From positions 9-64,008 of the forward strand of contig DATLOQ010000119.1 in the NCBI GenBank assembly GCA_035536235.1: 64,000 bases of DNA, written 5' to 3'. This stretch comes from Mycobacteriales bacterium. GTDB taxonomy: Bacteria > Actinomycetota > Actinomycetes > BP-191. The position numbers and the translations under genes were made by a program. This document shows, piece by piece, positions 2,410 to 54,876 of the stretch. Below the pieces are notes generated by a model. That model saw only the letters and a program-made list of their open reading frames with translations, made no database searches and was not told the origin of the DNA. Positions within the stretch are counted from its first letter, which is position 1, and every line of letters starts with the position of its first letter.

Positions 2410-3453
2410 ATGACCGAGATGGTGGTGGCCGCGGAGGACACCGGACTGCTCCGCCGATGGCGGGAGGTGCTGCGGACCACCAACCCGCCGGCGCTCGGCC
2501 CGGACCAGCAGATCGACGTCGTGTCGAAGTGGCTGGTGCTGACCCGCGCAGCGGTGCTGCCGATGACGCTGACCGCGGGACTGGTGGCCGGCCTTCTCGC
2601 CGTACGCCAGGAGGGATTCCACTCCGGCTACTTCGCGCTGGCGCTGCTGGGCATCACCTTGGCGCACGTGTCGAACAACTTGATGAACGACCTCTTCGAC
2701 AGCGAGGTAGGCCTCGACACGAACAGCTATCCCCGGGCCCTCTACGCCCCGCACCCCATCCTGTCCGGGATGATCTCCCGGCGTGGGTTGGCCCTCGCGG
2801 CACTTGCGGTCAACGTCGCCGACCTGGCGATCGGGCTTGTGCTCTTCAGCGCCCGCGGCTGGCCGGTGCTCGCCTTCGCCGTCTCCGGCTTCCTGCTGAG
2901 CGCCGCTTACACGGCACCGCCGCTGCGGCTGAAGAAGCGGGGCCTCGGCGAGCCTGACGTGTTTCTCGTGTGGGGGCCGTTGATGGTCGGCGGGACCTAC
3001 TACTCAGCGGTCGGCTCCGTGCCGGAGGCGATCCTCGCCGCGTCCATTCCCTACGGCCTGCTCTGCACGGCCGTGCTGATGGGAAAGCACATCGACAAGA
3101 TCCCGTGGGACTCCCCCGCCGGGGTCCGGACCCTACCCGTGATCCTCGGTGAGGACCGCGCGCGAGTGCTCACTCGGGCGCTGATGATCGGCTTCTACGT
3201 CGCCGTCGTCGGCTGCGTGATCGGCGGTGCGCTGCCGTGGCCGGCCCTCGCAGTGATCGGCGCACTACCGGTGCTGGTCAAGACCCTGCAACCGCTGCGC
3301 GAGCCGCGACCCGACGCGCCACCGGCCGGCTTCCCGGTGTGGCCGCTGTGGTTCGCCGCCATCGCCTTCGTGCACACCCGCCGAGCCGGCGCGCTGCTCG
3401 TCCTCGGCCTCGCGGGCGCCGCGATCGCCGACATCCCCGCCCCGGCGCTCTGA
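2410..3453 (+). CDS. UbiA-family membrane prenyltransferase (MenA-like Asp-rich motif NDLFDSEVGLD)
   Basis: Multi-pass hydrophobic protein carrying an NDxxDxxxGxD motif. The start was chosen at ATG 2410 so as not to overlap the divergent hydrolase start; an earlier start remains possible. Confidence 0.55.
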   Translation: MTEMVVAAEDTGLLRRWREVLRTTNPPALGPDQQIDVVSKWLVLTRAAVLPMTLTAGLVAGLLAVRQEGFHSGYFALALLGITLAHVSNNLMNDLFDSEVGLDTNSYPRALYAPHPILSGMISRRGLALAALAVNVADLAIGLVLFSARGWPVLAFAVSGFLLSAAYTAPPLRLKKRGLGEPDVFLVWGPLMVGGTYYSAVGSVPEAILAASIPYGLLCTAVLMGKHIDKIPWDSPAGVRTLPVILGEDRARVLTRALMIGFYVAVVGCVIGGALPWPALAVIGALPVLVKTLQPLREPRPDAPPAGFPVWPLWFAAIAFVHTRRAGALLVLGLAGAAIADIPAPAL

Positions 3454-3466
3454 TGGCCCTGCGCTC

Positions 3467-3510
3467 TTCCGTGTCATAGAAGACACGGAAGAGCGCAGGG
3501 TCACCCGGGT
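3467..3510. terminator. 19-bp perfect inverted repeat (CCCTGCGCTCTTCCGTGTC / ATAGAA / GACACGGAAGAGCGCAGGG); a bidirectional hairpin between convergent genes
   Basis: Read directly from the sequence. It sits between the stop of the prenyltransferase (3453) and the stop of hemY (3501); the stem covers the hemY stop codon. There is no U-tract, as is common in high-GC actinobacteria. Confidence 0.5.
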
Positions 3511-6927: not shown

Positions 6928-7995
6928 TCAGTGGGTCGTGGTCTCGTGGACGAGCTCGACGACGCGGCGCAGCACATCGGGGTCGGTCTCGGGGAGCACC
7001 CCGTGGCCGAGGTTGAAGACGTGCCCCTCCAACCCGCGAGCTCGGTGGAGCACCTCCCGGGTGCGCTCCTCGACGACGTCCCACGGGGCCAGCACCACCG
7101 CCGGGTCGAGGTTGCCCTGCACCGCCTTGCCCGGACCGATGCGGCGGGCTCCTTCGTCGATCGGCAGGTGGAAGTCGACGCCGACGACGTCGGCGCCCGC
7201 CGCCGCCATCAGGCCCAGGATCTCGCCGGTGCCCACGCCGAAGTGGATGCGCGGCACCCCGAGGTCCGCCAGACCCGCGAAGATTTTCTGCGACGCAGGC
7301 AGCACGTGGCGCTCGTAGTCGGCAGCCGAGAGGGCACCGGCCCACGAGTCGAAGAGCTGTACGGCGCTGACGCCCGCGGCCACCTGCGCTCGCAGGAACG
7401 TCAGGGTGAGATCGGCCAGCGCGTCGAGCAGCTGGGCCCACCCCGCCGGGTCGGCGTACATGAAGGCCTTCGTGCGGCTGTGGGTCTTCGACGGCCCGCC
7501 CTCGACGAGGTAGCTGGCCAGGGTGAACGGCGCCCCGGCGAAGCCGATGAGCGGCACCTCGAGCTCCTTGACTAGGAGTCGGACAGCCTCGCCGATGTAG
7601 GGCATGTCGCTGTCGGGGTCGAGCGGTCGCAGCCGGTCCAGGTCAGCCGGTCCGCGGAAGGGCTCGTCGACTACCGGCCCCACCCCGGGTTTGATGTCCA
7701 GCCCGACGCCGATCGCCTTGAGCGGCAGCACGATGTCGCTGAAGAGGATGGCGGCGTCGACGCCGTGGCGCCGCACCGGCTGTAGCGTGATCTCGGTGAC
7801 CAGCTCCGGTCGCGTGCAGCTCTCGAGCATCGTCGTGCCGACGCGCAGCGCGCGATACTCGGGCAGCGACCGGCCGGCCTGGCGCATGAACCAGACCGGG
7901 GTGTGCGGCACCGGCTCGCGGCGACACGCGCGCAGGAAGGGCGAGTTCGCCAGCAGGGAGGTCACGGCAAGGATCGTCCCATGCCTGTCCGGCAC
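6928..7995 (-). CDS. hemE: uroporphyrinogen decarboxylase
   Basis: [10 protein letters not shown] motif and full-length HemE similarity. Confidence 0.9.
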
Positions 7996-8028
7996 CAGCA
8001 GAGCGGGCAGCTGGCCGAAGGGGGCTGC

Positions 8029-8823
8029 TCAGCCGATCCGCAGCGCGAAGGACACCAGGCGTTCGGCCGCACCGGCGCCGGTGCTGACGAATACCGCCTC
8101 GTAGCTCGCCGCAGGGGTCTGGCCGGGATAGAAGTACAGGGCCTGGATCGAGGCGAGCCGGCCAGGGGCACCCGCGACCACCACCCCCGTGCCTCCGGAC
8201 ACTCCGCCGGTGGCGCACTGGGAGCCTGGGCGAGCCAAGCAGACGTCGTCCGCCGACACCACTCCCGCGGAGTAGGACTGCGCCGACGCGAGCACGACCA
8301 TCGACCCGAGCGTGACCGTCATCGGAATGCGGCTCACCGCTGTCGGGACTCCCATCGGCAGGGTCTGCCGCACCAGCTCACCGCGGACGTCGGCTCGACC
8401 TCGGGGCAGGAGCGTGACCGACCGCCCGAGACCTTTCGCGGGCACCCGCACCTCGCTGGGCCCGTTGGCCAGCAACGTGACGCGGTAGCGGCCCGCTGGA
8501 AGCCGGACGGCGTCGAACCCGCCGCCGAAGACCATCGGGACCTGATCGCTGTCAACGGAGAAACCAGCCGCGACCACACCCCCGACAGCGACACTGCCGT
8601 CAGCGCGGTGCACGACGAATCCGGCGAAGGTGCCGCCCATGCGTGCGCTCATCGCCCGGGCCGGCCCGAGCCCGCCGACCTCGAACGTCGTGGGCCGCCG
8701 GAGCACCAGGTTCATGCTCCTGCTGGCCACTCCCCGCAGCACCAGCACCTCAGCGGGGCTGGCCCAGGCCGCCGGCAGTCCGGTCAGACCGAGAAGCACC
8801 AGCAGCACTGCCAGTCGGCGCAT
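8029..8823 (-). CDS. secreted hypothetical protein (signal peptide MRRLAVLLVLLGLTGLPAAWASPA)
   Basis: ORF with a clear Sec signal peptide from internal ATG 8823; the ORF-track extension to 9078 is Arg-rich junk. No recognisable domain. Confidence 0.45.
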   Translation of the reverse strand: MRRLAVLLVLLGLTGLPAAWASPAEVLVLRGVASRSMNLVLRRPTTFEVGGLGPARAMSARMGGTFAGFVVHRADGSVAVGGVVAAGFSVDSDQVPMVFGGGFDAVRLPAGRYRVTLLANGPSEVRVPAKGLGRSVTLLPRGRADVRGELVRQTLPMGVPTAVSRIPMTVTLGSMVVLASAQSYSAGVVSADDVCLARPGSQCATGGVSGGTGVVVAGAPGRLASIQALYFYPGQTPAASYEAVFVSTGAGAAERLVSFALRIG

Positions 8824-8864: not shown

Positions 8865-9713
8865 TCACCCGGCGCCGCCGCTGCCGGCGATCAGGACCAC
8901 GCCGGTGAGTGCGGCGACCACCCCCGCGACCTGTGACCGCCGCATCCGCTCGGCGAGCAGCCGACGCGCCAGCAACGCCGTGACGACGGGGTAGAGCGAG
9001 GCCAGCACCGCGACCACAGCCAGGTCGGCAGCCCCGCTGGCAGCCACGGCGTAAAGGCCGACCGCCCCGAGGTCGCACCCGCCGGCCAGTACGAGCGTCG
9101 GCACATCGGCGCGGCGGACGGTGAGGGGAGTACGACGCAGCGCGACCGTCGCAATGGTGAGGACCGCCCCGGTGGCCCGCATGACGGCGAGGACCGCCAG
9201 CGTGCTGCTGCCCTCGCCCGAAGTGGCCCGGTCGACGAGCACCAGCACGGAGCCGAAGCCCAGCGCGGCCAGGAACGCCAACCCGAACGCCGCACGGCTA
9301 GCGCCGCCATGGCGCAGGTCGAGACCGGAGGCCAGAACCACACCGGAAGCAGCGAGCAGGATCCCACCCGTGGCGAGCGCGCCCGGCCGGTCGCCCTGCG
9401 CCCAGGACACCACCACAGGCACGGCGACGCCGGTGGCGGCGATGGGCGCGACCACCCCCATCGTGCCCACCGCCAGCGCCTGGTAGAAGGCGCTGAGCGC
9501 GACGGCAATGGCTGCCCCCGCGCCGGCCGCGAGCAGCAGGTAGGGGCCGAACGGGGCGTCCCGGCGGAGCAGCAGCAGGCTGCCCGCCAGCACCAGTCCG
9601 ACCACCTGGACCACCGCCACGACGAGCAGCGCGGGGCAGCGGCGGCTGAGCACACCGCCGATGTAGTCGGCGGTCCCCCACAGCAGGCTGGAGACGAGGG
9701 CGAGGAGAGCCAC
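8865..9713 (-). CDS. DMT/EamA family transporter (start uncertain, GTG 9713 or nearby)
   Basis: The C-terminal ~280 aa of the 472-aa ORF are a typical 10-TM EamA protein; the upstream part of the ORF overlaps the divergent DUF3000 gene and is not protein-like. Confidence 0.55.
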   Translation of the reverse strand: MALLALVSSLLWGTADYIGGVLSRRCPALLVVAVVQVVGLVLAGSLLLLRRDAPFGPYLLLAAGAGAAIAVALSAFYQALAVGTMGVVAPIAATGVAVPVVVSWAQGDRPGALATGGILLAASGVVLASGLDLRHGGASRAAFGLAFLAALGFGSVLVLVDRATSGEGSSTLAVLAVMRATGAVLTIATVALRRTPLTVRRADVPTLVLAGGCDLGAVGLYAVAASGAADLAVVAVLASLYPVVTALLARRLLAERMRRSQVAGVVAALTGVVLIAGSGGAG

Positions 9714-9803
9714 GACGATGACCCTACGGGCGACACGCCCGGCGCCAACGGGACGGCCCGGGGTTACCAGTCGCTGCGGCGGGTCCCACCTAGTGTGACG
9801 GCC

Positions 9804-10379
9804 ATGACGGTGGAGCCGGACGAGGCACCCGAGGCGTTCCGGTCGGCGGTGGCCGACCTGCGCGCGACGGAGGTCGACGTGGCCGTCACCATTCGGGAGA
9901 TCCCTGCGCCGGGCCGCCTGGCGCCGTACTCCTTCGCCCTCGCCGCCGAGGTGCTGCACGGAGACGACGAGCTGGCCGGCGGGCGCTTCGTCCTGTTGCA
10001 CGACCCAGCCGGCCAGGACGCCTGGGAGGGCACCTCGCGCATCGTCGCCTTCCTGTCCGCTGAGGTCGAGGAGGACATCGGCAACGACCCGCTGCTCCCC
10101 GAGGTCGGCTGGGCCTGGCTGCTCGACGCGCTGGCCGGGCACGACGCAGGCCACGTCGCCGCGGGCGGCACCGTCACGCGGACCTCGTCGTCGCGGTTCG
10201 GCATGATGGCCGGCGAGGACGACGGCTGCGACGTCGAGCTGCGCTGCTCGTGGACGCCGACCGGACCCTCGCTGGGGGCTCACCTGGCGGCCTTCTGCGA
10301 CGTGCTCTGCTCCATGGCTGGGCTGCCGCCGGCTTCGGCCGGCGTGGCGCGCCTGCCGCTGGGCCGCAGCAGGTCCTAG
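9804..10379 (+). CDS. DUF3000 family protein (Rv2680-like)
   Basis: Acidic ~190-aa protein MTVEPDEAPEAFRSAVADL... Conserved actinobacterial neighbour of rnd and hemE (M. tuberculosis Rv2680 context). Confidence 0.65.
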   Translation: MTVEPDEAPEAFRSAVADLRATEVDVAVTIREIPAPGRLAPYSFALAAEVLHGDDELAGGRFVLLHDPAGQDAWEGTSRIVAFLSAEVEEDIGNDPLLPEVGWAWLLDALAGHDAGHVAAGGTVTRTSSSRFGMMAGEDDGCDVELRCSWTPTGPSLGAHLAAFCDVLCSMAGLPPASAGVARLPLGRSRS

Positions 10380-31806: not shown

Positions 31807-32895
31807 GTGGCCGCCAGCCGGAGATCCGTGCCCAGCCCGCTCGACGTCGCCGACCTCCGCGAGCGCGTGCACAAGGCGCTGAGTGCCTTCCTCGCTGAGC
31901 AGGTCGGCGTGCTCGACCGGATCGCGGAGGAGCTCGGCCCCATCGGCACGGCGGTGTCGGACTTCCTGCTCGACGGGGGCAAGCGGCTGAGACCGGCGTT
32001 CTGCTACTGGGGTTGGCGCGGAGCCGGCGGGCCGGACAGCGACGAGATCGTGGCAGCGGCGGCGTCCCTGGAGCTGCTGCAGGCCTGTGCGCTGATACAC
32101 GACGACGTGATGGACGGCTCCGACACCCGGCGCGGGCGGCCTGCGGTGCACCGGGGGTTCGCCGCACTTCACCGCGGCGAGGGGTGGCTGGGCGACCCGG
32201 AGACCTTCGGCACGTCCGCGGCCATCCTGCTCGGCGACCTGTGCCTGATCTGGGCCGACCAGCTGCTGAACACCTGCGGGCTGCCCGACGTGATGCTGCG
32301 CCGTGGCGCGCCGACGTACGACGAGATGCGGGTCGAGCTGATGGCCGGGCAGTACCTCGACCTGCTCGAGCAGGCACTCGGCGGCCGGGACATCGATCGG
32401 GCGCTGCGGGTGGCGCGCTACAAGAGCGCCAAGTACACGATCGAGCGCCCGCTGCACCTGGGCGGCGTGCTGGCGGGAGCGCCGACCGAGCTGCTGGCGA
32501 CCTACACCGGCTACGGGCTGCCGCTGGGCGAGGCGTTCCAGCTCCGCGACGACGTGCTGGGCGTCTTCGGCGACCCGTCGGAGACCGGCAAGCCGGCGGG
32601 CGACGACCTGCGCGAGGGCAAGCGCACCGCGCTGGTCGCAATCGCGCTGGACCGCGCCACTCCTGACCAGGCTGCCGTCGTGCGCCGGCACCTCGGCGAC
32701 CCCCACCTCGACGAGAGGGGGGTGGCCCTGCTGCGCGACGTGATCGACGGCACGGGCGCGCTGGCGGAGGTGGAGGCGCTGATCGCCCGCCGCACGGACG
32801 AGGCGCACAGTGCCCTGGGCGCTGGGGTGCTGGAGCCGGCGGCGCGAGAGGTGCTCGGCAACCTCGTCAGCGCAGCGACGTCCCGCCGCGTCTAG
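31807..32895 (+). CDS. idsA: geranylgeranyl diphosphate synthase (polyprenyl synthetase; CrtE/IdsA2-like)
   Basis: FARM ([15 protein letters not shown]) and SARM (FQLRDDVLG) motifs. Start chosen at GTG 31807 to avoid overlapping the divergent metF start. Confidence 0.8.
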
Positions 32896-35624
32896 ACGTG
32901 CCGGGCTCGGCGGCGGAGCGCCGCCCCGGCCAGGACGACGAGGAGCCCGAGGTGCGGCGCGACCGCGCCAGTCGCCGGCATTGGCCGCGGCGTGCGCACC
33001 GGGGGCACGGGAGCCGCGCGGACCGGCGCGGCGAGCGCTATCACGTGCACCCAACCGCCTCGGTCCTCGTACGGCATCGTCAAGCACGGCCCGATGACGC
33101 CGTCGGTGAGCGAGCAGACCTCGGACCGGGGGTGAGGGCGCCGAGCGTCGGTGAGATCGGGCCCAGAAATCTCCCGCACTGATGCGATCGCCGAGCGCAG
33201 CGCCGCCGCCACCACGGCCTGCGGAGCCCGGCCGCCGGTGTAGTCCCGCGAGGGGACCAGGCCGGAGAAGCCCGGCCGGAGGATTCGCGTCGCGAGGTTG
33301 TCCAGCGGTGGCGCGTCATAGACGTGGCTGCCCACGCCGGTCTGCCGATCGAGGATGGCATCGGATCCGTCATCCGGCAGCAGACCGGCGAAGAGCTCCC
33401 GGCGTACCGCGAGGACGAAGGCGTCGTAGAGCGTTGGCGCCGGGCCGTCGGTGGCCGGCTCACCCATCGTGTCAGCACCGGGTCCGTAGTGGCTGCCGTC
33501 CCAGGCCAGGAGCAGGTCGATCGCGGTGCGCTCGTCGGACGTCAGGTCGTCGCGACGGGCGAGCTCGGCCAGCAGGGGTCGATAGAGCGTCAGCCTGACG
33601 TCACGGCTGCCCGCCAGTCGGTCCACGGCCATCAACGCCTTGAGGTCCAAGTCCTTGCGGCCGCGCAGCAGGTCGTGCAGGAGCGTCACTCTCTGGACGG
33701 GGCCGGCAGGGCGAGAGAACGGTGCTCGCCCTTCGCCGTCCAACCAGCCGCGCGCGGGCTTGTTGTTCCAGTTGACGAGATAGCCCTCGGGCGGGTCGAC
33801 GGAGTGCGGCATCTCCTCGAAGGTCAGCAGCCCGTCCGGATCGTGCTCGCCAGTGCCAGGAGCGGGCAGCCGCATATCCACCGAGCGCTTGCGGCGCAGC
33901 TCCAGCCCCGGGTGCCAGTAGGCGATGCGCCCGTCTGCATCGGCATAGAGCACGTTCTCGTTCCAGGTGACCGCGCGGACACCGGCCTCGAACTCGGCGA
34001 AGGTGTCGGCGCTGTTCCACGCCAACGTGCCCTTGATGGTCTCGAGCTCTCGTCCCCACATGGCGTACTGCACGGACCGGGACTTAGTGCCGTCCGCGGT
34101 TGTCGCGACGATCGGCCCATGGACGGTACGGCAGGCGCGGACGTCCTGGCTGAGCAGGGCAGGGCCGACCGGCACGCCCTCGGGCGCGGCGCGGTAGCGC
34201 ACTGTCTCGGTCCGGCAGTCCGCGTCCTTCCACTTGCCGTCGTGCAGGTACTGCGGTGGATCGCCGGCGCTGGCACCCGGTCTGGTCGTCTCGATGTAGG
34301 AGTCGATGGACTTGCTATAGCCCGACGTCAGCGCCCACGCGACCCGCTTGCCGTACCCGATGCCGATCGTCGGCAGCCCTGGCACGGCCGCGCCGCGAGC
34401 GTCGTACCCGCCGCCGTGCACCTCGAGCTCCCAGAGCATGCTCGGGTAGCTGTAGCCGAGCTGCGGACCGCTGAGCAGCAGAGCCTTGCCGTCCCTAGTG
34501 TTCTTCGGCGCGACCGCTGCTGCGATGGACCCGCCGCGCAGGTTCGTCAGGTACTCGTGTACGGCGGTGACAGCGCGCGCCACGGCCGCCTGCGGGACGC
34601 CGAGCGGGTTGGCGGCCGGCGCGGCCACGGGGGCCCGTGGTGGCAGCGTCGGCTCCGGGCTGCCGCCAGTGCCGGGACCCGTGGCGAGCTCCAGCGGGAT
34701 GGTTGCGGCGAAGTCCGCCATGGACGTGAAGGTGCGAGCGCGATCAGCTGCGCTGCCCGGGATGTTGCTGAAGGAGCGACCCTGCACGGTGGTCACCGCC
34801 TTGGGGTCCTCTTGCCAGACCAGGTCCTCGAAGACTCCGCGGCCGGCGGTCTTGCCGAGCTTCGACTCCAGGGTCCGCAGCGCCGCGACGTTCTCCATCT
34901 CGTTGCCGCCCTCGGCGGCGACGAAGCGGGTGATCAGCACGCCTGCGGCGAGGACATCCCGTCGCTCCCACCGCCTCGGCGTAGTCGTCAGAAGGACGTA
35001 CTCCGCCGGCAGCAGTCGGGGATTCGCAGCCACCTCGTCGAGACGCGCGTTGACCCCGTCGACGTACCCGTCGACGGCGTCCTTGCCGGCCTGCGGCAGC
35101 GCGACGAAGAACTGCTCGTACTCCTCCGCGGAGTAGGTCAGGACGCGGGTCTTGATGTCGGCCGGGACGGACCCGCTGCCGGCCAGCTCGGCCAGCGTGC
35201 CGAGCCCCGTGCGCCGCAGGCCGTCCATGAAGAACAGCCGGTCCACCGCGGCAGAGTAGCCCGCCCCGAACCACACGTCTCGCCCGGTGTCGGCGTACAC
35301 CGCAGGCACGCCGAAGCCATCACGGTAGATGCGCACTCCCGGCTTGGGCTCCACCGGTTCGCCTTGAGCGTGGAATTTGCCGGGCTTGTATCCGAAGCCC
35401 CAGTAGAGCTCGCGTTGGTCGTCGATGTGCTCGCCGAACTCCGACGGCTTCCCTGATGCTTCTCCACGCAGCTGGCCCTCGACGGAGAAGAAGCCGCTGT
35501 TGCCGGGCGGCAGCACTGTGAACGCGGTGAGCTCCTGCCTGGGTGGGCTCTCCTGCGCCAGGGCCGGCGCGACCGGGAGGAAGCCAAGCAGGGCAACGAG
35601 GAGCGCTGCGGGGGCGATGCGCAT
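32892..35624 (-). CDS. penicillin amidase / acylase family protein (Ntn-hydrolase S45), secreted, with C-terminal MPATG sorting-signal-like tail
   Basis: Signal peptide, ~880-aa penicillin-acylase-family length and motifs. C-terminus [44 protein letters not shown]. Confidence 0.75.
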   Translation of the reverse strand: MRIAPAALLVALLGFLPVAPALAQESPPRQELTAFTVLPPGNSGFFSVEGQLRGEASGKPSEFGEHIDDQRELYWGFGYKPGKFHAQGEPVEPKPGVRIYRDGFGVPAVYADTGRDVWFGAGYSAAVDRLFFMDGLRRTGLGTLAELAGSGSVPADIKTRVLTYSAEEYEQFFVALPQAGKDAVDGYVDGVNARLDEVAANPRLLPAEYVLLTTTPRRWERRDVLAAGVLITRFVAAEGGNEMENVAALRTLESKLGKTAGRGVFEDLVWQEDPKAVTTVQGRSFSNIPGSAADRARTFTSMADFAATIPLELATGPGTGGSPEPTLPPRAPVAAPAANPLGVPQAAVARAVTAVHEYLTNLRGGSIAAAVAPKNTRDGKALLLSGPQLGYSYPSMLWELEVHGGGYDARGAAVPGLPTIGIGYGKRVAWALTSGYSKSIDSYIETTRPGASAGDPPQYLHDGKWKDADCRTETVRYRAAPEGVPVGPALLSQDVRACRTVHGPIVATTADGTKSRSVQYAMWGRELETIKGTLAWNSADTFAEFEAGVRAVTWNENVLYADADGRIAYWHPGLELRRKRSVDMRLPAPGTGEHDPDGLLTFEEMPHSVDPPEGYLVNWNNKPARGWLDGEGRAPFSRPAGPVQRVTLLHDLLRGRKDLDLKALMAVDRLAGSRDVRLTLYRPLLAELARRDDLTSDERTAIDLLLAWDGSHYGPGADTMGEPATDGPAPTLYDAFVLAVRRELFAGLLPDDGSDAILDRQTGVGSHVYDAPPLDNLATRILRPGFSGLVPSRDYTGGRAPQAVVAAALRSAIASVREISGPDLTDARRPHPRSEVCSLTDGVIGPCLTMPYEDRGGWVHVIALAAPVRAAPVPPVRTPRPMPATGAVAPHLGLLVVLAGAALRRRARHV

Positions 35625-35647: not shown

Positions 35648-37138
35648 ATGCGCACCGTCAGTGGTCCCAGCGATCGGGTCGTCATCGTCGGCGCCGGGCT
35701 GGCCGGGCTGTCCGCGGCGCTGCGCCTCGCCGGAGCTGGTCGCGAGGTCACTGTGCTGGAGCGCGAGTCCGTCCCCGGCGGTCGAGCAGGGCGACTCTCC
35801 GACAGCGGCTTCGAGTTCGACACCGGACCGACCGTGCTGACTATGCCGGACCTGATCCGCGACGCATTCGCGTGCGTCGGGGAGGAGATGGACGACTGGC
35901 TGACCCTGCGGCCGCTGTCCCCGCTCTACCGCGCCTACTACCCGGACGGCTCCACCCTGGACGTGCACAGCGACACCGACGCGATGGCCGAGGAGGTCGC
36001 GCGCGTCTGTGGTCCCGCCGAGGCGGCGGGCTACCGGCGCTACGTCGACTTCGTGTCGGAGCTCTACCGGCTGGAGATGGCCGACTTCATCGACCGCAAC
36101 ATCGACTCGCCCTTCTCGCTGCTGCGGCCGTCGCTGGCCCGGCTGGCGGCGATCGGCGGCTTCCGGCGGCTGGCACCCAAGGTGGGTGAGTACCTCAAGG
36201 ACCCGCGGACGCAGCGGGTGCTCTCCTTCCAGTCGATGTACGCCGGGCTGTCGCCGTACGACGCGCTCGCGATCTACGCGGTCATCGCCTACATGGACTC
36301 CGTCGCCGGCGTCTACTTCCCCGAGGGCGGCATGCACGCGGTGCCGGTCGCGCTCGCCGGCGCGGCGGTCAAGCACGGCGTCGACATCCGCTACTCCACG
36401 ACGGTGACGCAGGTCGAGGTCGTCAACGGTCGGGCCGTCGGCGTGCTCACGGCTGCCGGCGAGCGAATCCCGGCCGATGTGGTGGTGCTCAACCCGGACC
36501 TCCCGGTGGCCTATCGCGAGCTGCTGCCGCCGACCGCGGTGCCGGCGCGGGTGAAGTCGCTCACCTACTCGCCGTCGTGCTTCCTGCTGCTGGCCGGGTC
36601 GACGGCGTCGTACTCCCAGATCGCGCACCACAACATCCACTTCGGCAAGTCGTGGCGCGGCGTCTTCGACGAGCTCATCGACCAGCAGTCGCTGATGAGC
36701 GACCCCTCGGTGCTGGTGACCGCGCCCACGCACACCGACCCGTCGCTGGCACCGGAGGGCCGTCACATCTACTACGTGCTCTTTCCGACGCCCAACCTCG
36801 ACGCTGCTCTCGACTGGTCGGTCATCGGCCCGCGCTACCGCAATGAAGTCATCGGGCACCTGGAGCGCCTCGGCTACGTCGGATTCGGCGACGCGATCGA
36901 GGTCGAGCACGTGACGACGCCGGCCGACTGGAGGGCCCGCGGGATGGAGCGAGGCGCGCCGTTCGCGGCGGCGCACACCTTCTTCCAGACGGGTCCGTTT
37001 CGGCCCGCCAACCTCGCGCCCAAGGTGGACGGCGTGGTCTTCTGCGGCTCGGGCACCCAGCCGGGCGTCGGCGTACCGATGGTGCTCATCAGCGGCCGCC
37101 TCGCCGCTGAGCGCATCCTCGGCCCCAGCACGTCCTAA
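35648..37138 (+). CDS. crtI: phytoene desaturase
   Basis: VVIVGAGLAGLSAALRLA dinucleotide fold and full-length CrtI similarity including the C-terminal FCGSGTQPGVGVPMV motif. Confidence 0.85.
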   Translation: MRTVSGPSDRVVIVGAGLAGLSAALRLAGAGREVTVLERESVPGGRAGRLSDSGFEFDTGPTVLTMPDLIRDAFACVGEEMDDWLTLRPLSPLYRAYYPDGSTLDVHSDTDAMAEEVARVCGPAEAAGYRRYVDFVSELYRLEMADFIDRNIDSPFSLLRPSLARLAAIGGFRRLAPKVGEYLKDPRTQRVLSFQSMYAGLSPYDALAIYAVIAYMDSVAGVYFPEGGMHAVPVALAGAAVKHGVDIRYSTTVTQVEVVNGRAVGVLTAAGERIPADVVVLNPDLPVAYRELLPPTAVPARVKSLTYSPSCFLLLAGSTASYSQIAHHNIHFGKSWRGVFDELIDQQSLMSDPSVLVTAPTHTDPSLAPEGRHIYYVLFPTPNLDAALDWSVIGPRYRNEVIGHLERLGYVGFGDAIEVEHVTTPADWRARGMERGAPFAAAHTFFQTGPFRPANLAPKVDGVVFCGSGTQPGVGVPMVLISGRLAAERILGPSTS

Positions 37139-37192
37139 ACCCTCCTCGCCTCCCGGTCCAGGCGCCGTGGCCCGCGACCGAATTCCCCATCT

Positions 37193-37276
37193 CCGCACAC
37201 AAAGTGATCGCCATGCCGCCGGACTGAGCACGAGTCTGCAGCGAGCCGTGTGGATAGAGGACCACTTTGTGTGCGG
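37193..37276. repeat. inverted-repeat element copy 1: CCGCACACAAAGTG (37193-37206) ... CACTTTGTGTGCGG (37263-37276), 14-bp perfect arms with a 56-bp spacer
   Basis: Read directly. It lies between the crtI stop and the stop of the AbiEi/DUF559 gene. Confidence 0.65.
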
Positions 37277-37280
37277 TCAG

Positions 37281-38183
37281 TCAGGGCCGGAGCATCTCCG
37301 CCAGGGTCGCAAGCACGTAGTCGGGCTCGTGGACGACGTGCTGCCAGCAGAAGCGGAGCAGCTGCAGCCCGAGGATCTCGAGCTCGTTGGCGCGCCACTC
37401 GTCAACTGCAAGCCGCTCCAGGCCGTGGAACAGGTCACCCTCGGTCTCCACAACGAGCCGGGGTGGGTACCAGAAGTCGACCCGACCGAGGCGGCGTCCG
37501 TTGGCGCGCCGAAGGAGTCGCTGAGTCTGGCCCGGCGGCATACCGGCCAAGACGACCAGGACGCGGAAGAGCGACTCCAACACCGATCCAGCCCGGGGGT
37601 TGACGAGTCCCAGCACGGTCGATACCCGCGACGCATCTCGTCCCCACAGCGCACGGCGCTCACCGATGACCGCCAGCATCCGCAACAGCCCCAATCGCAT
37701 GAGCGAGTCGATGGCCGCGACCGCGGTGCTCTGCGGCTCGGCACGAGCGAGGTCGACAGCCAGCCGGGCAGGTGCGGTCACTTTGAGCACGATCACGTCG
37801 TCGCCAACCCGCAGGCGCAGCGGTCCGACGTCCGCCGGGCCGAGATCGGATCGATGCACCTCGTACGGCGAGCTCACTCGCGACCGGTTGCGCTCTACAG
37901 TGAGGTGAGTAGCGCCGTCCCAGCCGAGTATTGGCACGCCTTGCAGCACGGCCGCGGCGGCATGGCTGACCGCAGCGCGCCGCCCAGCCGCCTCCTCGGC
38001 CACCTCGTGCACCCAGTCCGGGGAGGAGGGGATGAGCCAGGTCTTCGCGCGTACTAGCAGTACGTCGCCCCTACGCCGACGCTGGGCCAATTCGGCCGCC
38101 TCGACCCCGTGCCCGCGGGCGAACGGCGTGGAGACCAGCCGACCCGTCGCACCAGCGGCTGCCGCCAGGCTCTCGAATGACAT
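37281..38183 (-). CDS. AbiEi_4 N-terminal domain / DUF559 (Vsr-like PD-(D/E)XK endonuclease) protein
   Basis: The C-terminal VDFWYPPRLVVETEGDLFHG...DEWRANELEILGLQLLRF is the DUF559 signature; the N-terminus is AbiEi-like. ATG 38183 is preferred, because the GTG 38294 extension would translate the left arm of the flanking repeat. Confidence 0.6.
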   Translation of the reverse strand: MSFESLAAAAGATGRLVSTPFARGHGVEAAELAQRRRRGDVLLVRAKTWLIPSSPDWVHEVAEEAAGRRAAVSHAAAAVLQGVPILGWDGATHLTVERNRSRVSSPYEVHRSDLGPADVGPLRLRVGDDVIVLKVTAPARLAVDLARAEPQSTAVAAIDSLMRLGLLRMLAVIGERRALWGRDASRVSTVLGLVNPRAGSVLESLFRVLVVLAGMPPGQTQRLLRRANGRRLGRVDFWYPPRLVVETEGDLFHGLERLAVDEWRANELEILGLQLLRFCWQHVVHEPDYVLATLAEMLRP

Positions 38184-38267
38184 CCACCCAGCGTGCGCAC
38201 TCGCACCGTCGTACCGGGGTCGTGACGTGAATCTGTGAATAAGCCGGATCGGCGGCCGCACCCGATC

Positions 38268-38349
38268 CCGCACACAAAGGGGGCCGTCGTCCACAGGCCG
38301 AGCGGCGTCGCGTGCTCGCGGCGACGAGGGCGCGATCGCTTTGTGTGCG
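38268..38349. repeat. inverted-repeat element copy 2: CCGCACACAAAG (38268-38279) ... CTTTGTGTGCG (38339-38349), 59-bp spacer containing an internal GC hairpin
   Basis: Read directly. It lies in the divergent spacer between the AbiEi/DUF559 start and the crtB start. Confidence 0.65.
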
Positions 38350-38399
38350 AGCAGCTCTGATCTGGGGCCTCGCGAACCAACAGTGGGAGACTCAGGCGC

Positions 38400-39338
38400 A
38401 TGGGGTTGGTGCAGGAAGCGCTGTCACGGGGTGAGCTGCGCCGGGTCGCCGACCCGACCCTGCGGGCGTCGTACCTCGCCTGCAAGGACCTCAACGCTCG
38501 CCATGGCCGCACCTACTTCCTCGCGACGCTGCTGCTGCCGGCGTGGAAGCGCCCGTACGTGCACGCCCTCTACGGCTTTGCGCGGTACGCCGACGAGATC
38601 GTCGACGACCTCGGCTCGACCGCCAGCGACGCCGAGAAGGCGGCCCACCTCACCACCTGGGGCGAGCAGTTCCTCGCCGACGTACGCCGGGGCGAGAGCA
38701 CGGACCCGGTCTGCCGCGCGGTCGTCGACACCGTGCGCCGGTGGGACATCCCCATCGCGCACTTCGAGGCGTTCCTGCAGTCGATGCAGATGGACCTGAC
38801 CGTCACCGACTACAAGACCTACGAAGACCTGATGGTCTACGTCTACGGGTCCGCCGCAGTGATCGGGCTGCAGATGGTGCCGATCCTCGAGCCGCTGGAC
38901 GACTCGGCGTCTGCCTACGCGGCGGACCTCGGCATCGCCTTCCAGCTGGCCAACTTCATCCGCGACGTCGGCGAGGACCTGCAGCGCGGCCGCATCTACC
39001 TCCCGTTGGAGGACCTGCAAGCGTTCGGCGTCGACCGCGAGCACCTCGCGCGCGGTGTCGTAGACGGCCCGATACGACGGCTGCTGGCCTTCGAGATATC
39101 CCGCACCCGCGAGATCTTCCGGGCCGCCCGCCCCGGCGTCCGCCTGCTGCACTCGACCAGCCGCGACTGCATCGAGACGGCGCTCACCCTCTACGGCGGC
39201 ATCCTGGACGAGGTGGAGGCCGCCGACTACCAGGTGCTCGACCGGCGGGTCTCCGTCGGCCTGCCCCGGCGGGCGGCCGTCGCCGGCCGGGGAATCGTCC
39301 GGGCCCGGCGGGCGCGCCGCCGTGGCCCCTGGGCGTAG
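38400..39338 (+). CDS. crtB: phytoene synthase
   Basis: Squalene/phytoene synthase Asp-rich motifs (YARYADEIVDD; FIRDVGEDLQRGRIYLP). Confidence 0.9.
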   Translation: MGLVQEALSRGELRRVADPTLRASYLACKDLNARHGRTYFLATLLLPAWKRPYVHALYGFARYADEIVDDLGSTASDAEKAAHLTTWGEQFLADVRRGESTDPVCRAVVDTVRRWDIPIAHFEAFLQSMQMDLTVTDYKTYEDLMVYVYGSAAVIGLQMVPILEPLDDSASAYAADLGIAFQLANFIRDVGEDLQRGRIYLPLEDLQAFGVDREHLARGVVDGPIRRLLAFEISRTREIFRAARPGVRLLHSTSRDCIETALTLYGGILDEVEAADYQVLDRRVSVGLPRRAAVAGRGIVRARRARRRGPWA

Positions 39339-53004: not shown

Positions 53005-54876
53005 GTGGATACGACGACTGCTGACCCGCTCGTAGGGCAGCTGATCGACGGCCGATACCGCGTCGACGCCCGGGTGGCTCGGGGCGGGATGGCCACGGTC
53101 TACCGGGCGTTCGACACCCGACTGGACCGCATCGTGGCCCTCAAGGTGATGCACGACTCGCTGGCGCAGGACGACGCCTTCGTCGAGCGGTTCAAGCGGG
53201 AAGCCAAGAGCGCCGCCCGACTCCAGCACCCCAATGTCGTCGCGATCTTCGACCAGGGCGAGGACGCCGGTCGGGTCTACCTCGTCATGGAGCTGGTGAG
53301 CGGCCGCACCCTGCGCTCGGTGCTGCGGGAGCAGGGGCGCCTCGACGTCGGCCAGGCGCTCGGCGTCGCGGAGGGCCTGCTCACTGCTTTGGCGGCCGCC
53401 CACGACGCCGGCATCGTCCATCGCGACGTCAAGCCCGAGAACGTCCTCGTCACCGAGTCCGGCCAGGTCAAGGTGGCCGACTTCGGGCTGGCCCGGGCCA
53501 TCGAGTCCACCCACCACACCGTCGCGGACGGCACCCTCATCGGCACGGTGGCCTACCTCGCGCCGGAGCAGGTGCTCACCGGCGCTGCTGACGCGCGCAC
53601 CGACATCTACTCGGCCGGGATCGTCCTCTACGAGATGCTGACCGGCGCTGTGCCCTTCACGGGCGACATCCCGATCAACGTCGCCTACCAGCACGTCAAC
53701 GACGACGTGCCCCCGCCCTCGGCGACCGAGCGCACCCTGCCGGCAATGATCGACGCACTCGTCGTCGACGCGACCCGCCGACCCCCCGAGCAGCGCTACC
53801 CGGACGTGCAGACGATGCTGGCCGCCGTACGGCGGGCCAACGCGATGGCGGGCGCCGACACCAGCCACTACACGTCGGTGGTCTCGCTGGCCGACGCGCC
53901 GACGACGGTGCTGTCGCTGGGTCGCGCGCCCGCCGGGGCCCCGCCCCGCGACGCTGGCTCCCCGGCTCCGAAGGTGCGCCGGCGTCGACGTGCTCCCCTG
54001 GTGCTCGCGATCCTCGCCGGTCTCATCCTGGGCACCGCAGGCGCGGTGGGGTGGTGGTTCGGCTCCGGCCGCTACGAGGACGCGCCGACGTTCGAGCGGC
54101 TGACCCAGGAGGCCGCGCAGGCCCGGGCGGCCGAGCTCGACGTGGACATCGAGATCAAAGAGCCGTCGCCCTTCGACGAGGTGGTGCCCCGCGGCACGGT
54201 CATCGACCAGGACCCGGAGCCGGGTGCGCGCTTCCGGCGCGGCACTGCGATCACCCTGACGATCTCGCGCGGGCCCGACCGCGTCGCGATCCCTGACGTC
54301 CGGGGCAAGACCGAAGCGCAGGCGCGCGCCCTCCTCGTCGCGCAGCGCCTCGACGTCGTTCTCGCACCGCTGGAGTTCCACCGCGAGGTCCCGGCGGGCA
54401 CCGTCATCGACCAGAACCCGGGTCCTAGGGCAATCAAGGACGTCAAGCCCAGCACTGCCGTCACCCTCATCGTGAGCAAGGGACCCGAGCCGGCCACCGT
54501 CCCGGCGGTGGAAGGCCGCACGCGCGCTGACGCGGAGAAGCTGCTGTCCGAGGCCGGTCTGGTGGCCAAGGTGGTCGAGACGTTCGACGACAAGGTCCCG
54601 GCCGGCATCGTGATCCGCCAGGACCGTGCAGGCGGCTCGACCGCCGCTCGGGGGGACACGGTGACCCTCACCGTGTCCAAGGGGCCCGAGCTGGTGACTG
54701 TGCCCGACGTCGAGGGCCGTCGGCGCGAGGAGGCGCAGACGCTGCTGCAGGCCGCGGGCTTCCGCGTGCGGTTCGTCGAGTTCCCCGGTCGGCGCGGCAA
54801 GACCGTGATCGATCAGAACCCCGCCGGTGGCGAGCGGCGCCGGCGCGGCACCGTCGTGACCTGCTTCCTGTTCTGA
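53005..54876 (+). CDS. Ser/Thr protein kinase with four extracellular PASTA domains (PknB/PknL-like)
   Basis: Hanks kinase motifs (VALK, HRDVKPEN, DFGLA, APE), a TM, then four PASTA repeats. GTG start. Confidence 0.85.
   Translation: MDTTTADPLVGQLIDGRYRVDARVARGGMATVYRAFDTRLDRIVALKVMHDSLAQDDAFVERFKREAKSAARLQHPNVVAIFDQGEDAGRVYLVMELVSGRTLRSVLREQGRLDVGQALGVAEGLLTALAAAHDAGIVHRDVKPENVLVTESGQVKVADFGLARAIESTHHTVADGTLIGTVAYLAPEQVLTGAADARTDIYSAGIVLYEMLTGAVPFTGDIPINVAYQHVNDDVPPPSATERTLPAMIDALVVDATRRPPEQRYPDVQTMLAAVRRANAMAGADTSHYTSVVSLADAPTTVLSLGRAPAGAPPRDAGSPAPKVRRRRRAPLVLAILAGLILGTAGAVGWWFGSGRYEDAPTFERLTQEAAQARAAELDVDIEIKEPSPFDEVVPRGTVIDQDPEPGARFRRGTAITLTISRGPDRVAIPDVRGKTEAQARALLVAQRLDVVLAPLEFHREVPAGTVIDQNPGPRAIKDVKPSTAVTLIVSKGPEPATVPAVEGRTRADAEKLLSEAGLVAKVVETFDDKVPAGIVIRQDRAGGSTAARGDTVTLTVSKGPELVTVPDVEGRRREEAQTLLQAAGFRVRFVEFPGRRGKTVIDQNPAGGERRRRGTVVTCFLF

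Follow-up and report, generated by a model that had tools for sequence, protein, structure and literature searches.

A 64-kb stretch of DNA from a Mycobacteriales bacterium (contig DATLOQ010000119.1, hereafter the window) carries, between the carotenoid genes crtI and crtB, a 1.2-kb insert with a single nuclease gene and, on either side of it, a copy of an ~80-bp split palindrome. Our analysis indicates that the segment at approximately 37139-38375 is probably an accessory, laterally exchanged cassette, in which a single nuclease gene is combined with two copies of the element that its product recognises. The arms of the palindromes are most likely the predicted binding sites of the encoded protein itself, and the unit a selfish cassette, for which we infer the mechanism of cleavage and mobility. 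The same architecture, a gene with flanking elements whose arms are lineage-specific, recurs at at least 15 further loci (cited below by number, such as L076).

The insert at the crtI-crtB site

The features of the site, in window coordinates, are the following.

35648-37138, plus strand: crtI (phytoene desaturase), the left host flank (Pfam Amino_oxidase, E 1.7e-45)
37139-38375: inserted cassette, approximate extent, without counterpart in the empty L106/L107 junction
37193-37276, plus strand: element A, a split palindrome with 14-nt perfect arms and an interior of 56 nt
37193-37206 and 37263-37276: arms of element A, CCGCACACAAAGTG and CACTTTGTGTGCGG, pairing perfectly
37224-37232, plus strand: centre motif of element A, CTGAGCACG, 19 nt inward of the 12-nt left arm core, read from the sequence
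37281-38183, minus strand: nuclease gene (300-aa protein), an AbiEi-type winged helix and AbiEi middle domain fused to a Vsr/DUF559 nuclease
38268-38349, minus strand: element B, a split palindrome with an interior of 59 nt, between the nuclease gene start and crtB
38268-38279 and 38339-38349: arms of element B, CCGCACACAAAG (12 nt) and CTTTGTGTGCG (11 nt)
38298-38306, plus strand: first centre-like motif of element B, CCGAGCGGC, 18 nt from the left arm
38311-38319: second centre-like motif of element B, CGTGCTCGC, which reads GCGAGCACG on the minus strand, 19 nt from the right arm
38400-39338, plus strand: crtB (phytoene synthase), the right host flank (Pfam SQS_PSY, E 2.9e-70)

The inverted repeats that the original prediction had placed here are correct in coordinates, arms and 56- and 59-nt spacers, and the coordinates also bear out its statement that the two copies bracket exactly one minus-strand gene. 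For comparison, crt clusters were sampled via CrtB, independently of the presence of the nuclease gene; the CrtI alignments to L105 and L106 begin at residue 36 of the long crtI open reading frame (ORF). Two independent assemblies, L106 and L107, whose CrtI and CrtB are 94% and 88% identical to those of the window, have only 40 nt between the crtI stop and the crtB ATG and contain neither the nuclease gene nor the element. The insert interrupts an adjacency of crtI and crtB, as had been proposed. At the same site L105, which comes from assembly GCA_046590575.1 and has CrtI 96% and CrtB 91% identical to the window, holds a nuclease allele that is only 37% identical and whose arms, CCACACAAC/GTTGTGTGG, are unlike those of the window. 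When the window, L105, L106 and L076 are aligned, homology is lost at the crtI stop and is back about 25 nt before the crtB ATG.

At a CrtB identity of about 75%, the L109 junction is empty and L110 has a cassette, flanked on each side by a 48-nt element with arms GCGACACGCCG. L111 has no nuclease gene, and its 249-nt gap before crtB contains decayed arm-like strings, CTGCACACGCCCTGATCCAC and GACAACGTGATCC (3290-3470), apparently left over from a cassette since lost. Altogether the site is occupied in the window, L105, L110 and L112, empty in L106, L107 and L109, and a relic in L111. The closest relative of the window allele is that of L076 (P0002, 67%), a locus whose CrtI is only 78% identical, and the allele is therefore nearer to that of a distant host than to that of the nearest relative, L105. 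These alignments show that among close relatives the gene and its two elements occur together or not at all, as one unit, and that alleles have been exchanged at one site.

Wherever the flank lies on the contig (L076, L077, L080-L082, L085/L086, L090, L105 and L110), the cassette is found directly 5' of crtB and divergent from it, and at the crt-linked loci element B ends 24-55 nt ahead of the crtB start codon; in L112 a partial divergent ORF stands at the position of crtB. A GCGACC-like string on both sides of the cassette was considered as a target-site duplication and rejected, as its surroundings do not fit a clean duplication.

Domain structure of the nuclease protein

The true start of the gene is the ATG at 38183, in agreement with homologue N-termini and with the NCBI protein P0001, an identical protein annotated as DUF559 domain-containing from a Mycobacteriales bacterium metagenome-assembled genome (MAG); the GTG at 38294, already suspected of being a spurious start, can be dismissed. 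The G+C content at third codon positions is 0.81 in this gene and 0.87-0.93 in its neighbours. An AbiEi-type module occupies residues 1-195, approximately, with its predicted recognition helix at about residues 29-38, and the Vsr/DUF559 nuclease residues 196-300. In the AlphaFold2 model (predicted local distance difference test score 91.4, predicted template modelling score 0.89) the first ~190 residues match AbiEi (6y8q, E 4.4e-6) and Rv2827c (1zel, E 1.1e-4) by Foldseek with probability 1.00, and the PADLOC AbiEi model covers residues 4-167 (E 7.8e-10). The last ~95 residues superimpose on the catalytic domain of I-Bth0305I (3r3p_B) with a template modelling (TM) score of 0.74 and a root mean square deviation of 2.3 Å, and the C-terminal domain on the DUF559 protein 3hrl with TM 0.69. 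Profile matches of this domain to 3hrl (E 1.6e-5), 3r3p (E 0.0098) and Pfam DUF559 point the same way, and weak PADLOC matches to the defence proteins Hhe, PDC-S37 and DpdF were also obtained. The PADLOC, Pfam, PDB profile and Foldseek matches thus agree with the earlier domain call of an AbiEi_4-like N-terminus and a DUF559 Vsr-like domain.

Residues D241, E251, G254, H258 and D266 are invariant across six homologues (numbering of a 305-aa query, 37281-38198; subtract 5 for the 300-aa protein). We can confidently predict from model and profiles that the protein is an AbiEi-type winged helix joined to a Vsr/EDxHD-like nuclease whose acidic and histidine residues are intact. No Y1_Tnp match appeared in Pfam, PADLOC, PDB or fold searches of the protein, and an AbiEii (DUF1814) toxin gene was neither among the window neighbours (crtI, crtB) nor called in the related loci.

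Covariation of the arms with the protein

The L076 homologue P0002 also lies between crtI and crtB and has two elements, with all four arms reading CCGCACACATTG/CAATGTGTGCGG and centres CTGAGCGTG and CTGAGCACG; between the window and L076 the change from AAAG to ATTG is thus found in all four arms. P0003 (42% identical) adjoins crtB and has a single element with arms GCACACATCCC. A metagenome search with the three-sequence alignment yielded 25 loci, among which nearly all homologues above ~35% identity lie between crtB and crtI or adjoin one of them, with a GCACAC...GTGTGC element on each side that the contig reaches. Flanking by the cognate element on both sides is observed in the window, L076, L085/L086, L090, L105, L110, L112, L024 and L070, and in L112, from assembly GCA_038200075.1, the arms extend to 27 nt on both sides (CCGGACC-N6-GCACACATCGTGATC). 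The upstream copy lies 58-105 nt before the start codon in every homologue with upstream sequence at hand, and a full second copy follows the stop codon in at least 8 lineages.

Where two proteins are similar, so are their arms: these are near-identical in L084/L087 (proteins 85% identical), identical in L024/L070 (73%), and common to both members in L083/L086 (71%; AGCACACAGTCG) and L077/L081 (71%; GCACACATC[C/G]C). Taken with the divergent alleles of the crt site, these comparisons of aligned loci show that arm sequence changes together with the protein allele. Since the arms differ, in parallel to the protein, even between genomes with 96% identical CrtI, a host factor is implausible as arm reader and the cassette protein is the only plausible one. 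In a search of 254 kb (the window and 32 loci) with the covariance model R1, every match with E < 0.1 (15 significant ones) was found to flank a nuclease homologue; a marginal match at window 53699-53768 lies inside a coding region and was discarded.

With a profile built from three members of the subfamily, the number of cluster representatives is 22,588 at E ≤0.001 and falls to 135 at E ≤1e-30, and the size of the GCACAC subfamily is taken as these ~135 representatives. The Streptomyces branch (P0004-like, ~31% identity) has its own conserved synteny and no such flanking palindromes, which limits our claim to the GCACAC subfamily and does not extend it to all AbiEi-DUF559 proteins. Other branches may own cognate sites of their own, to judge from repeats near distant members. 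Upstream of a 31%-identical homologue in L078 (4803-4917) lies a different inverted repeat, perfect over 18 nt (TTGGCAGATTTGGGCCA) and with its arms 37 nt apart, and wide-spaced repeats of the GCTTAGCCGGTG type accompany more distant homologues in L092, L093 and L099.

Plan and geometry of the element

The elements share a plan in which an arm of 12-27 nt with a GCACAC core is followed after 18-19 nt by the centre yTGAGCryG, then by a variable spacer and the reverse-complement arm. The centre keeps the same offset from the arm in other genomes, and apart from these 9 nt the interiors of the copies are unrelated. Measured from GCACAC to GTGTGC, ~50 distinct elements are 58, 67-70, 77-80 or 91 nt long, with none between; such length steps of ~10.5 nt fit two sites on one face of the DNA helix and not an RNA loop. 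The 48-nt element of L110 has another landmark (GCGACAC...GTGTCGC, with the core shifted) and is only roughly comparable.

Constraint on the element can be judged from two orthologous copies standing apart from any nuclease gene (solos, see below), L058 and L066, which lie in flanks of 87% identity. The two have the same arms (20-21 nt) and centres throughout (100% identity), whereas the interiors reach ~52% (ungapped) against ~50% over 12 nt of adjacent non-coding DNA. As the interior is no better kept than its neighbours while arms and centre are fixed, the latter are under selection and the rest looks neutral; the idea of hypervariable interiors was rejected on the same comparison.

Within the window, the 11-mer CGCACACAAAG occurs four times when one mismatch is allowed, every time exactly and every time as an element arm. 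Shuffled sequence gives a mean of 0.69 matches and 2 of 100 shuffles also reached four, so that the count alone is weak and the case against chance rests on the recurrence in other genomes. Scored by R1, element A obtains 30.8 bits (E 1.8e-5, plus strand) and element B 23.0 bits on the minus and 21.9 bits on the plus strand. Element A is orthologous to A' of L076 (interior identity 62%, z 4.4); the L076 element at the position equivalent to B keeps both arms, with an interior identity no higher than background (48%, z -0.8). No alignment is found between the spacers of A and B. Comparing the interior of A with the reverse complement of B gives z 5.2, with GCGAGCACG aligned under CTGAGCACG, which is weak evidence only for reading the two copies as terminal inverted repeats, since solo-solo controls reach z 4.3 through the shared centre; that reading was rejected.

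Solo copies in Frankiaceae

A scan of one genome per species with the pattern GCACACAAAG-N45-75-CTTTGTGTGC returned 75 loci, ~30 of them actinobacterial and most of these from two Frankiaceae MAGs (9 and 10 loci). The element there consists of TCGAAGTAGCACACAAAGT, N18, CTGAGCGTG, N19 and the reverse-complement arm, and its arms are identical in every copy. The MAGs JAICMG01 and CAZEAM01 have 8 and 9 solo loci with identical arms, mostly 0-25 nt past the stop codons of housekeeping genes (gltD, fumC, a major facilitator superfamily transporter and others) or between convergent genes. The only paired-copy loci of the scan, L024 and L070, both bracket a nuclease homologue between thrB and rho. 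Concerning the possibility, raised beforehand, that the repeat might occur unassociated with DUF559 genes, solos do dominate in these two MAGs, but the paired copies there bracket only the DUF559 homologue. As these data show, elements of this kind can also be scattered through intergenic regions, in the manner of the repetitive extragenic palindromes (REPs) around the genes of REP-associated tyrosine transposases (RAYTs).

The Frankiaceae arms contain GTAG, like classical REPs. In nine cases across eight loci (L004, L014, L025, L027, L035, L041 on both sides, L072 and L073), the gene reading into a solo stops at a TAG inside the arm (GAAGTAGCAC), so that the element adjoins, or has taken the place of, the natural 3' end of that gene.

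A second class of solos has the same arms and lacks the CTGAGCGTG centre (L004 1665-1732, L007 472-548, L027 2409-2476, L035 1252-1319, L041 599-666, L062 7756-7823 and L075 5508-5574). Near one arm it has the palindrome GTCCGA(A/T)TCGG in L007, L027, L035, L062 and L075 and degenerate palindromes in L004 and L041 (GTCCGGTTCGG, GTCCGTATCG). Tandem arrays or extra arm copies occur at L038 151-350, L023 1845-1960, L055 7464-7580 and L060 3367-3470; one Actinomycetota MAG has elements in tandem array, and one Frankiales MAG has extra arm-like copies 16-17 nt outside each arm, forming additional short-spaced palindromes. A 4.5-kb indel (DUF2231 membrane protein and GT2 glycosyltransferase; L004 1740-6238 versus L027 2017-2402) starts right beside an orthologous solo, into which a nitronate monooxygenase gene extends with its stop codon.

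The non-actinobacterial matches of the scan were set aside as an unrelated repeat sharing a 10-mer. In Bacteroidota, Planctomycetota, Abditibacteriaceae and others (e.g. L002, L010, L012, L017 and L040), it consists of reiterated CACAAAG units with CAAAGCACACAAAG ends, and it appears to have the 10-mer in common by chance or convergence.

Proposed mechanism

In the mechanism that we propose, two monomers would bind the inverted arms through their AbiEi modules, on the same face of the double helix, from where the nuclease domains would extend 18-19 bp inward to the centre. By occupying the upstream copy, the protein would probably also autoregulate its gene; autoregulation alone is insufficient as an explanation, because it accounts for the upstream copy and for neither the downstream one nor the solos. 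Nicks or cuts in the flanking copies, and in solos where present, would promote recombination that would move, exchange or delete the cassette, leaving or using solo copies. The relationship between protein and element would then resemble that of REPIN-RAYT systems, built on a different enzyme.

A wider reading, which we put forward tentatively, is that the AbiEi-DUF559 subfamily provides the enzymes of an unrecognised class of selfish elements, with a nuclease dimer acting on a 50-90-bp split palindrome with a central cut site. In such a class the palindromes might, with the same reserve, bracket their own gene and have colonised the 3' ends of host genes in some genomes, and their cutting could conceivably drive cassette exchange, loss and spread.

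Several observations weigh against a mobile cassette that reads its own palindromes. The flank alignments reveal neither a target-site duplication nor sharp cassette ends, and in L106 and L109 the empty junction is free of arm and centre motif alike. No solo was detected by R1 or by arm search in the 64-kb window or in ~250 kb of crt-lineage loci, and dispersal is documented only in lineages other than the crt-linked ones. Where solos do occur, they are kept at orthologous sites with arms intact although neutral sites are saturated, which may point to a function for the host. The centre lacks palindromic symmetry and stands in no fixed orientation to the gene, the likeness between the interiors of two flanking copies is clearly above background in L070 only (z 8.5), and the position of all crt-linked copies just 5' of crtB is also compatible with a local regulatory role. 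The empty junctions without arm or centre disfavour, in particular, classical homing into an empty allele if the arms are the recognition site. The original prediction of a small mobile cassette or homing-endonuclease-like insertion accordingly stands in respect to the insertion unit and the allele swaps at the crt site, and not in respect to canonical homing.

Alternative explanations

It is also conceivable, if rather unlikely, that the gene is an immobile accessory one, such as a defence or repair nuclease in a variable hotspot, and that the palindromes are regulatory sites only, the upstream copy being an AbiEi-style autorepression operator and the downstream one a second operator or a roadblock, with presence and absence arising by ordinary gain and loss through recombination in the crt flanks. 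Indeed, AbiEi and Rv2827c autoregulate via inverted repeats in their own promoters (PMC7319586), the upstream copy is a constant feature of the homologues, DUF559-like domains occur in defence proteins (the weak PADLOC matches above), and defence hotspots typically hold variable alleles at one site. Such a scheme leaves unexplained the complete second copy past the stop codon in at least 8 lineages, and the 8-9 solos per MAG behind unrelated genes would be senseless as operators for the nuclease gene; the arms are moreover 46-60 bp apart around a conserved centre, compared with 3-13 bp in AbiEi operators, and the AbiEii toxin partner was not found at these loci. Far less probable is that the palindromes are generic host REP-like or terminator elements that the gene merely lands beside or between. 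The Frankiaceae copies, mostly solos at gene ends, with their GTAG and the TAG stops that they supply, would suit this, as would the folding of the elements as single-stranded DNA (z -2.2 to -2.7). Yet the empty site lacks the element, so that both copies came with the gene, the arms differ alongside the allele at 96% CrtI identity, and 15 of the 15 significant R1 matches in 254 kb flank the gene. In addition, consensus scans for promoters and terminators over 37100-38450 found none, and neither a T run nor a terminator-like site.

Slightly more improbable again is the idea that the protein serves specifically to regulate transcription of the carotenoid genes, its own gene being divergent from crtB and having operators on either side. 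The arrangement at the crt-linked loci, where all copies are directly 5' of and divergent from crtB with element B close to its start, is what one would expect of it, but the gene is absent in L106, L107 and L109 from otherwise identical clusters, a 37%-identical allele takes its place in L105, the same system is found between thrB and rho in Frankiaceae MAGs, and the nuclease residues are conserved. An operator for a known type of carotenoid regulator (LitR/CarH/CrtR) was rejected on similar grounds, the unit being absent or replaced in close relatives and located between thrB and rho in Frankiaceae. We give least credit to an action of the elements as RNA, in a 3' or 5' untranslated region or as a small RNA, with the outer stem and a loop motif bound or processed. 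Two-sided changes do keep the outer stem in 9 of 18 pairs, and the centre points the same way as the gene that reads into the solo in ~12 independent cases versus 2. Nonetheless, RNAalifold recovers the outer stem only, with no conserved internal pairing, and Rfam gives no relevant match in the window region (E up to 10) or in eight element-bearing loci (E up to 1), on which grounds an RNA motif was rejected. The ~10.5-nt length steps, too, suit a DNA helix, and a perfect palindrome folds alike on both strands, while the orientation of the motif is mixed at crt sites.

Comparison with known systems

In REPIN-RAYT systems, RAYTs, which are HUH Y1 transposases of the IS200/IS605 kind, are flanked by their REP sequences. 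The cassette is similar in that a single gene at a stable chromosomal position is bracketed by a short palindromic element, which in some genomes is also scattered behind genes and whose sequence is specific to the resident gene lineage. It differs in its enzyme, an AbiEi winged helix with a PD-(D/E)xK Vsr-like nuclease instead of an HUH tyrosine transposase, in its long split palindrome (arms 46-60 bp apart) in place of a compact hairpin or REP doublet, and in copy number, with about ten copies seen versus hundreds and no solo in the window or the 254 kb of related loci.

The EDxHD homing endonuclease I-Bth0305I (3r3p) likewise has a Vsr-like catalytic domain after an N-terminal DNA-binding region. 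It acts as a homodimer with a footprint of ~60 bp and cuts at the centre (PMC3239194), a geometry with which the predicted footprint of ~60-80 bp and central site of the cassette are consistent. Patchy presence and allele turnover at one conserved intergenic site are further features in common with EDxHD and free-standing homing endonuclease genes. Unlike these, the cassette gene is outside any intron or intein, its DNA-binding module is AbiEi-type and not NUMOD, and its candidate recognition sequences stand on either side of the gene itself and do not occur in the empty allele, just the reverse of the situation at a classical homing site.

With AbiEi and Rv2827c (type IV AbiE), the protein shares the fold of the N-terminal ~190 residues and the presence of inverted repeats of ~20-27 bp upstream. 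AbiEi and Rv2827c monomers each bind a 23-bp inverted repeat in their own promoter, the repeats being 3-13 bp apart (PMC7319586), whereas the wider-spaced repeats of the cassette occur also downstream and, in some genomes, elsewhere; a C-terminal nuclease domain is fused on, and the AbiEii (DUF1814) toxin gene is missing beside it. Finally, miniature inverted-repeat transposable elements and small insertion sequences with terminal inverted repeats (e.g. Correia elements) are also intergenic, with conserved inverted ends near gene ends, and the cassette as a whole is similarly bounded by repeats. In contrast to them, copies of the element do not share a conserved interior, the flanks show no target-site duplication, no transposase is recognisable, and each cassette end is itself a complete palindrome.

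Significance

AbiEi_4-DUF559 fusion proteins are abundant and without assigned function, and full-text literature searches returned no paper linking them to a DNA element. One subfamily is now paired with a defined element whose sequence covaries with the protein, and a recurrent insertion site is documented inside actinobacterial carotenoid clusters. If the arms are the specificity determinant, the arm/protein series AAAG, ATTG, ATCGC, AGTCG, CCACACAAC and GCGACACGCC constitutes a data set for the recognition code of the AbiEi winged helix. The results also show that a family of REP-like repeats can have a nuclease as its partner in place of a tyrosine transposase. Should the tentative selfish-element class be true, it would be a functional analogue of REPIN-RAYT based on a PD-(D/E)xK nuclease, and part of a family whose uncharacterised members number in the thousands would have a function for the first time.

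Other observations in the carotenoid region

A 910-aa penicillin amidase gene (PF01804, E 1.6e-113) is located between crtE and crtI of the window (32892-35624, minus strand) and is not at that position in L105 and L106, representing a second variable insertion in the carotenoid cluster. In L076, crtB (8888-9804) and a BNR-repeat gene (7375-8705) are split across frames, either as pseudogenes or through long-read frameshift errors, and a DUF222 and HNH (REP13E12-like) gene (1599-2948) lies 7 kb from the cassette in the crt region.

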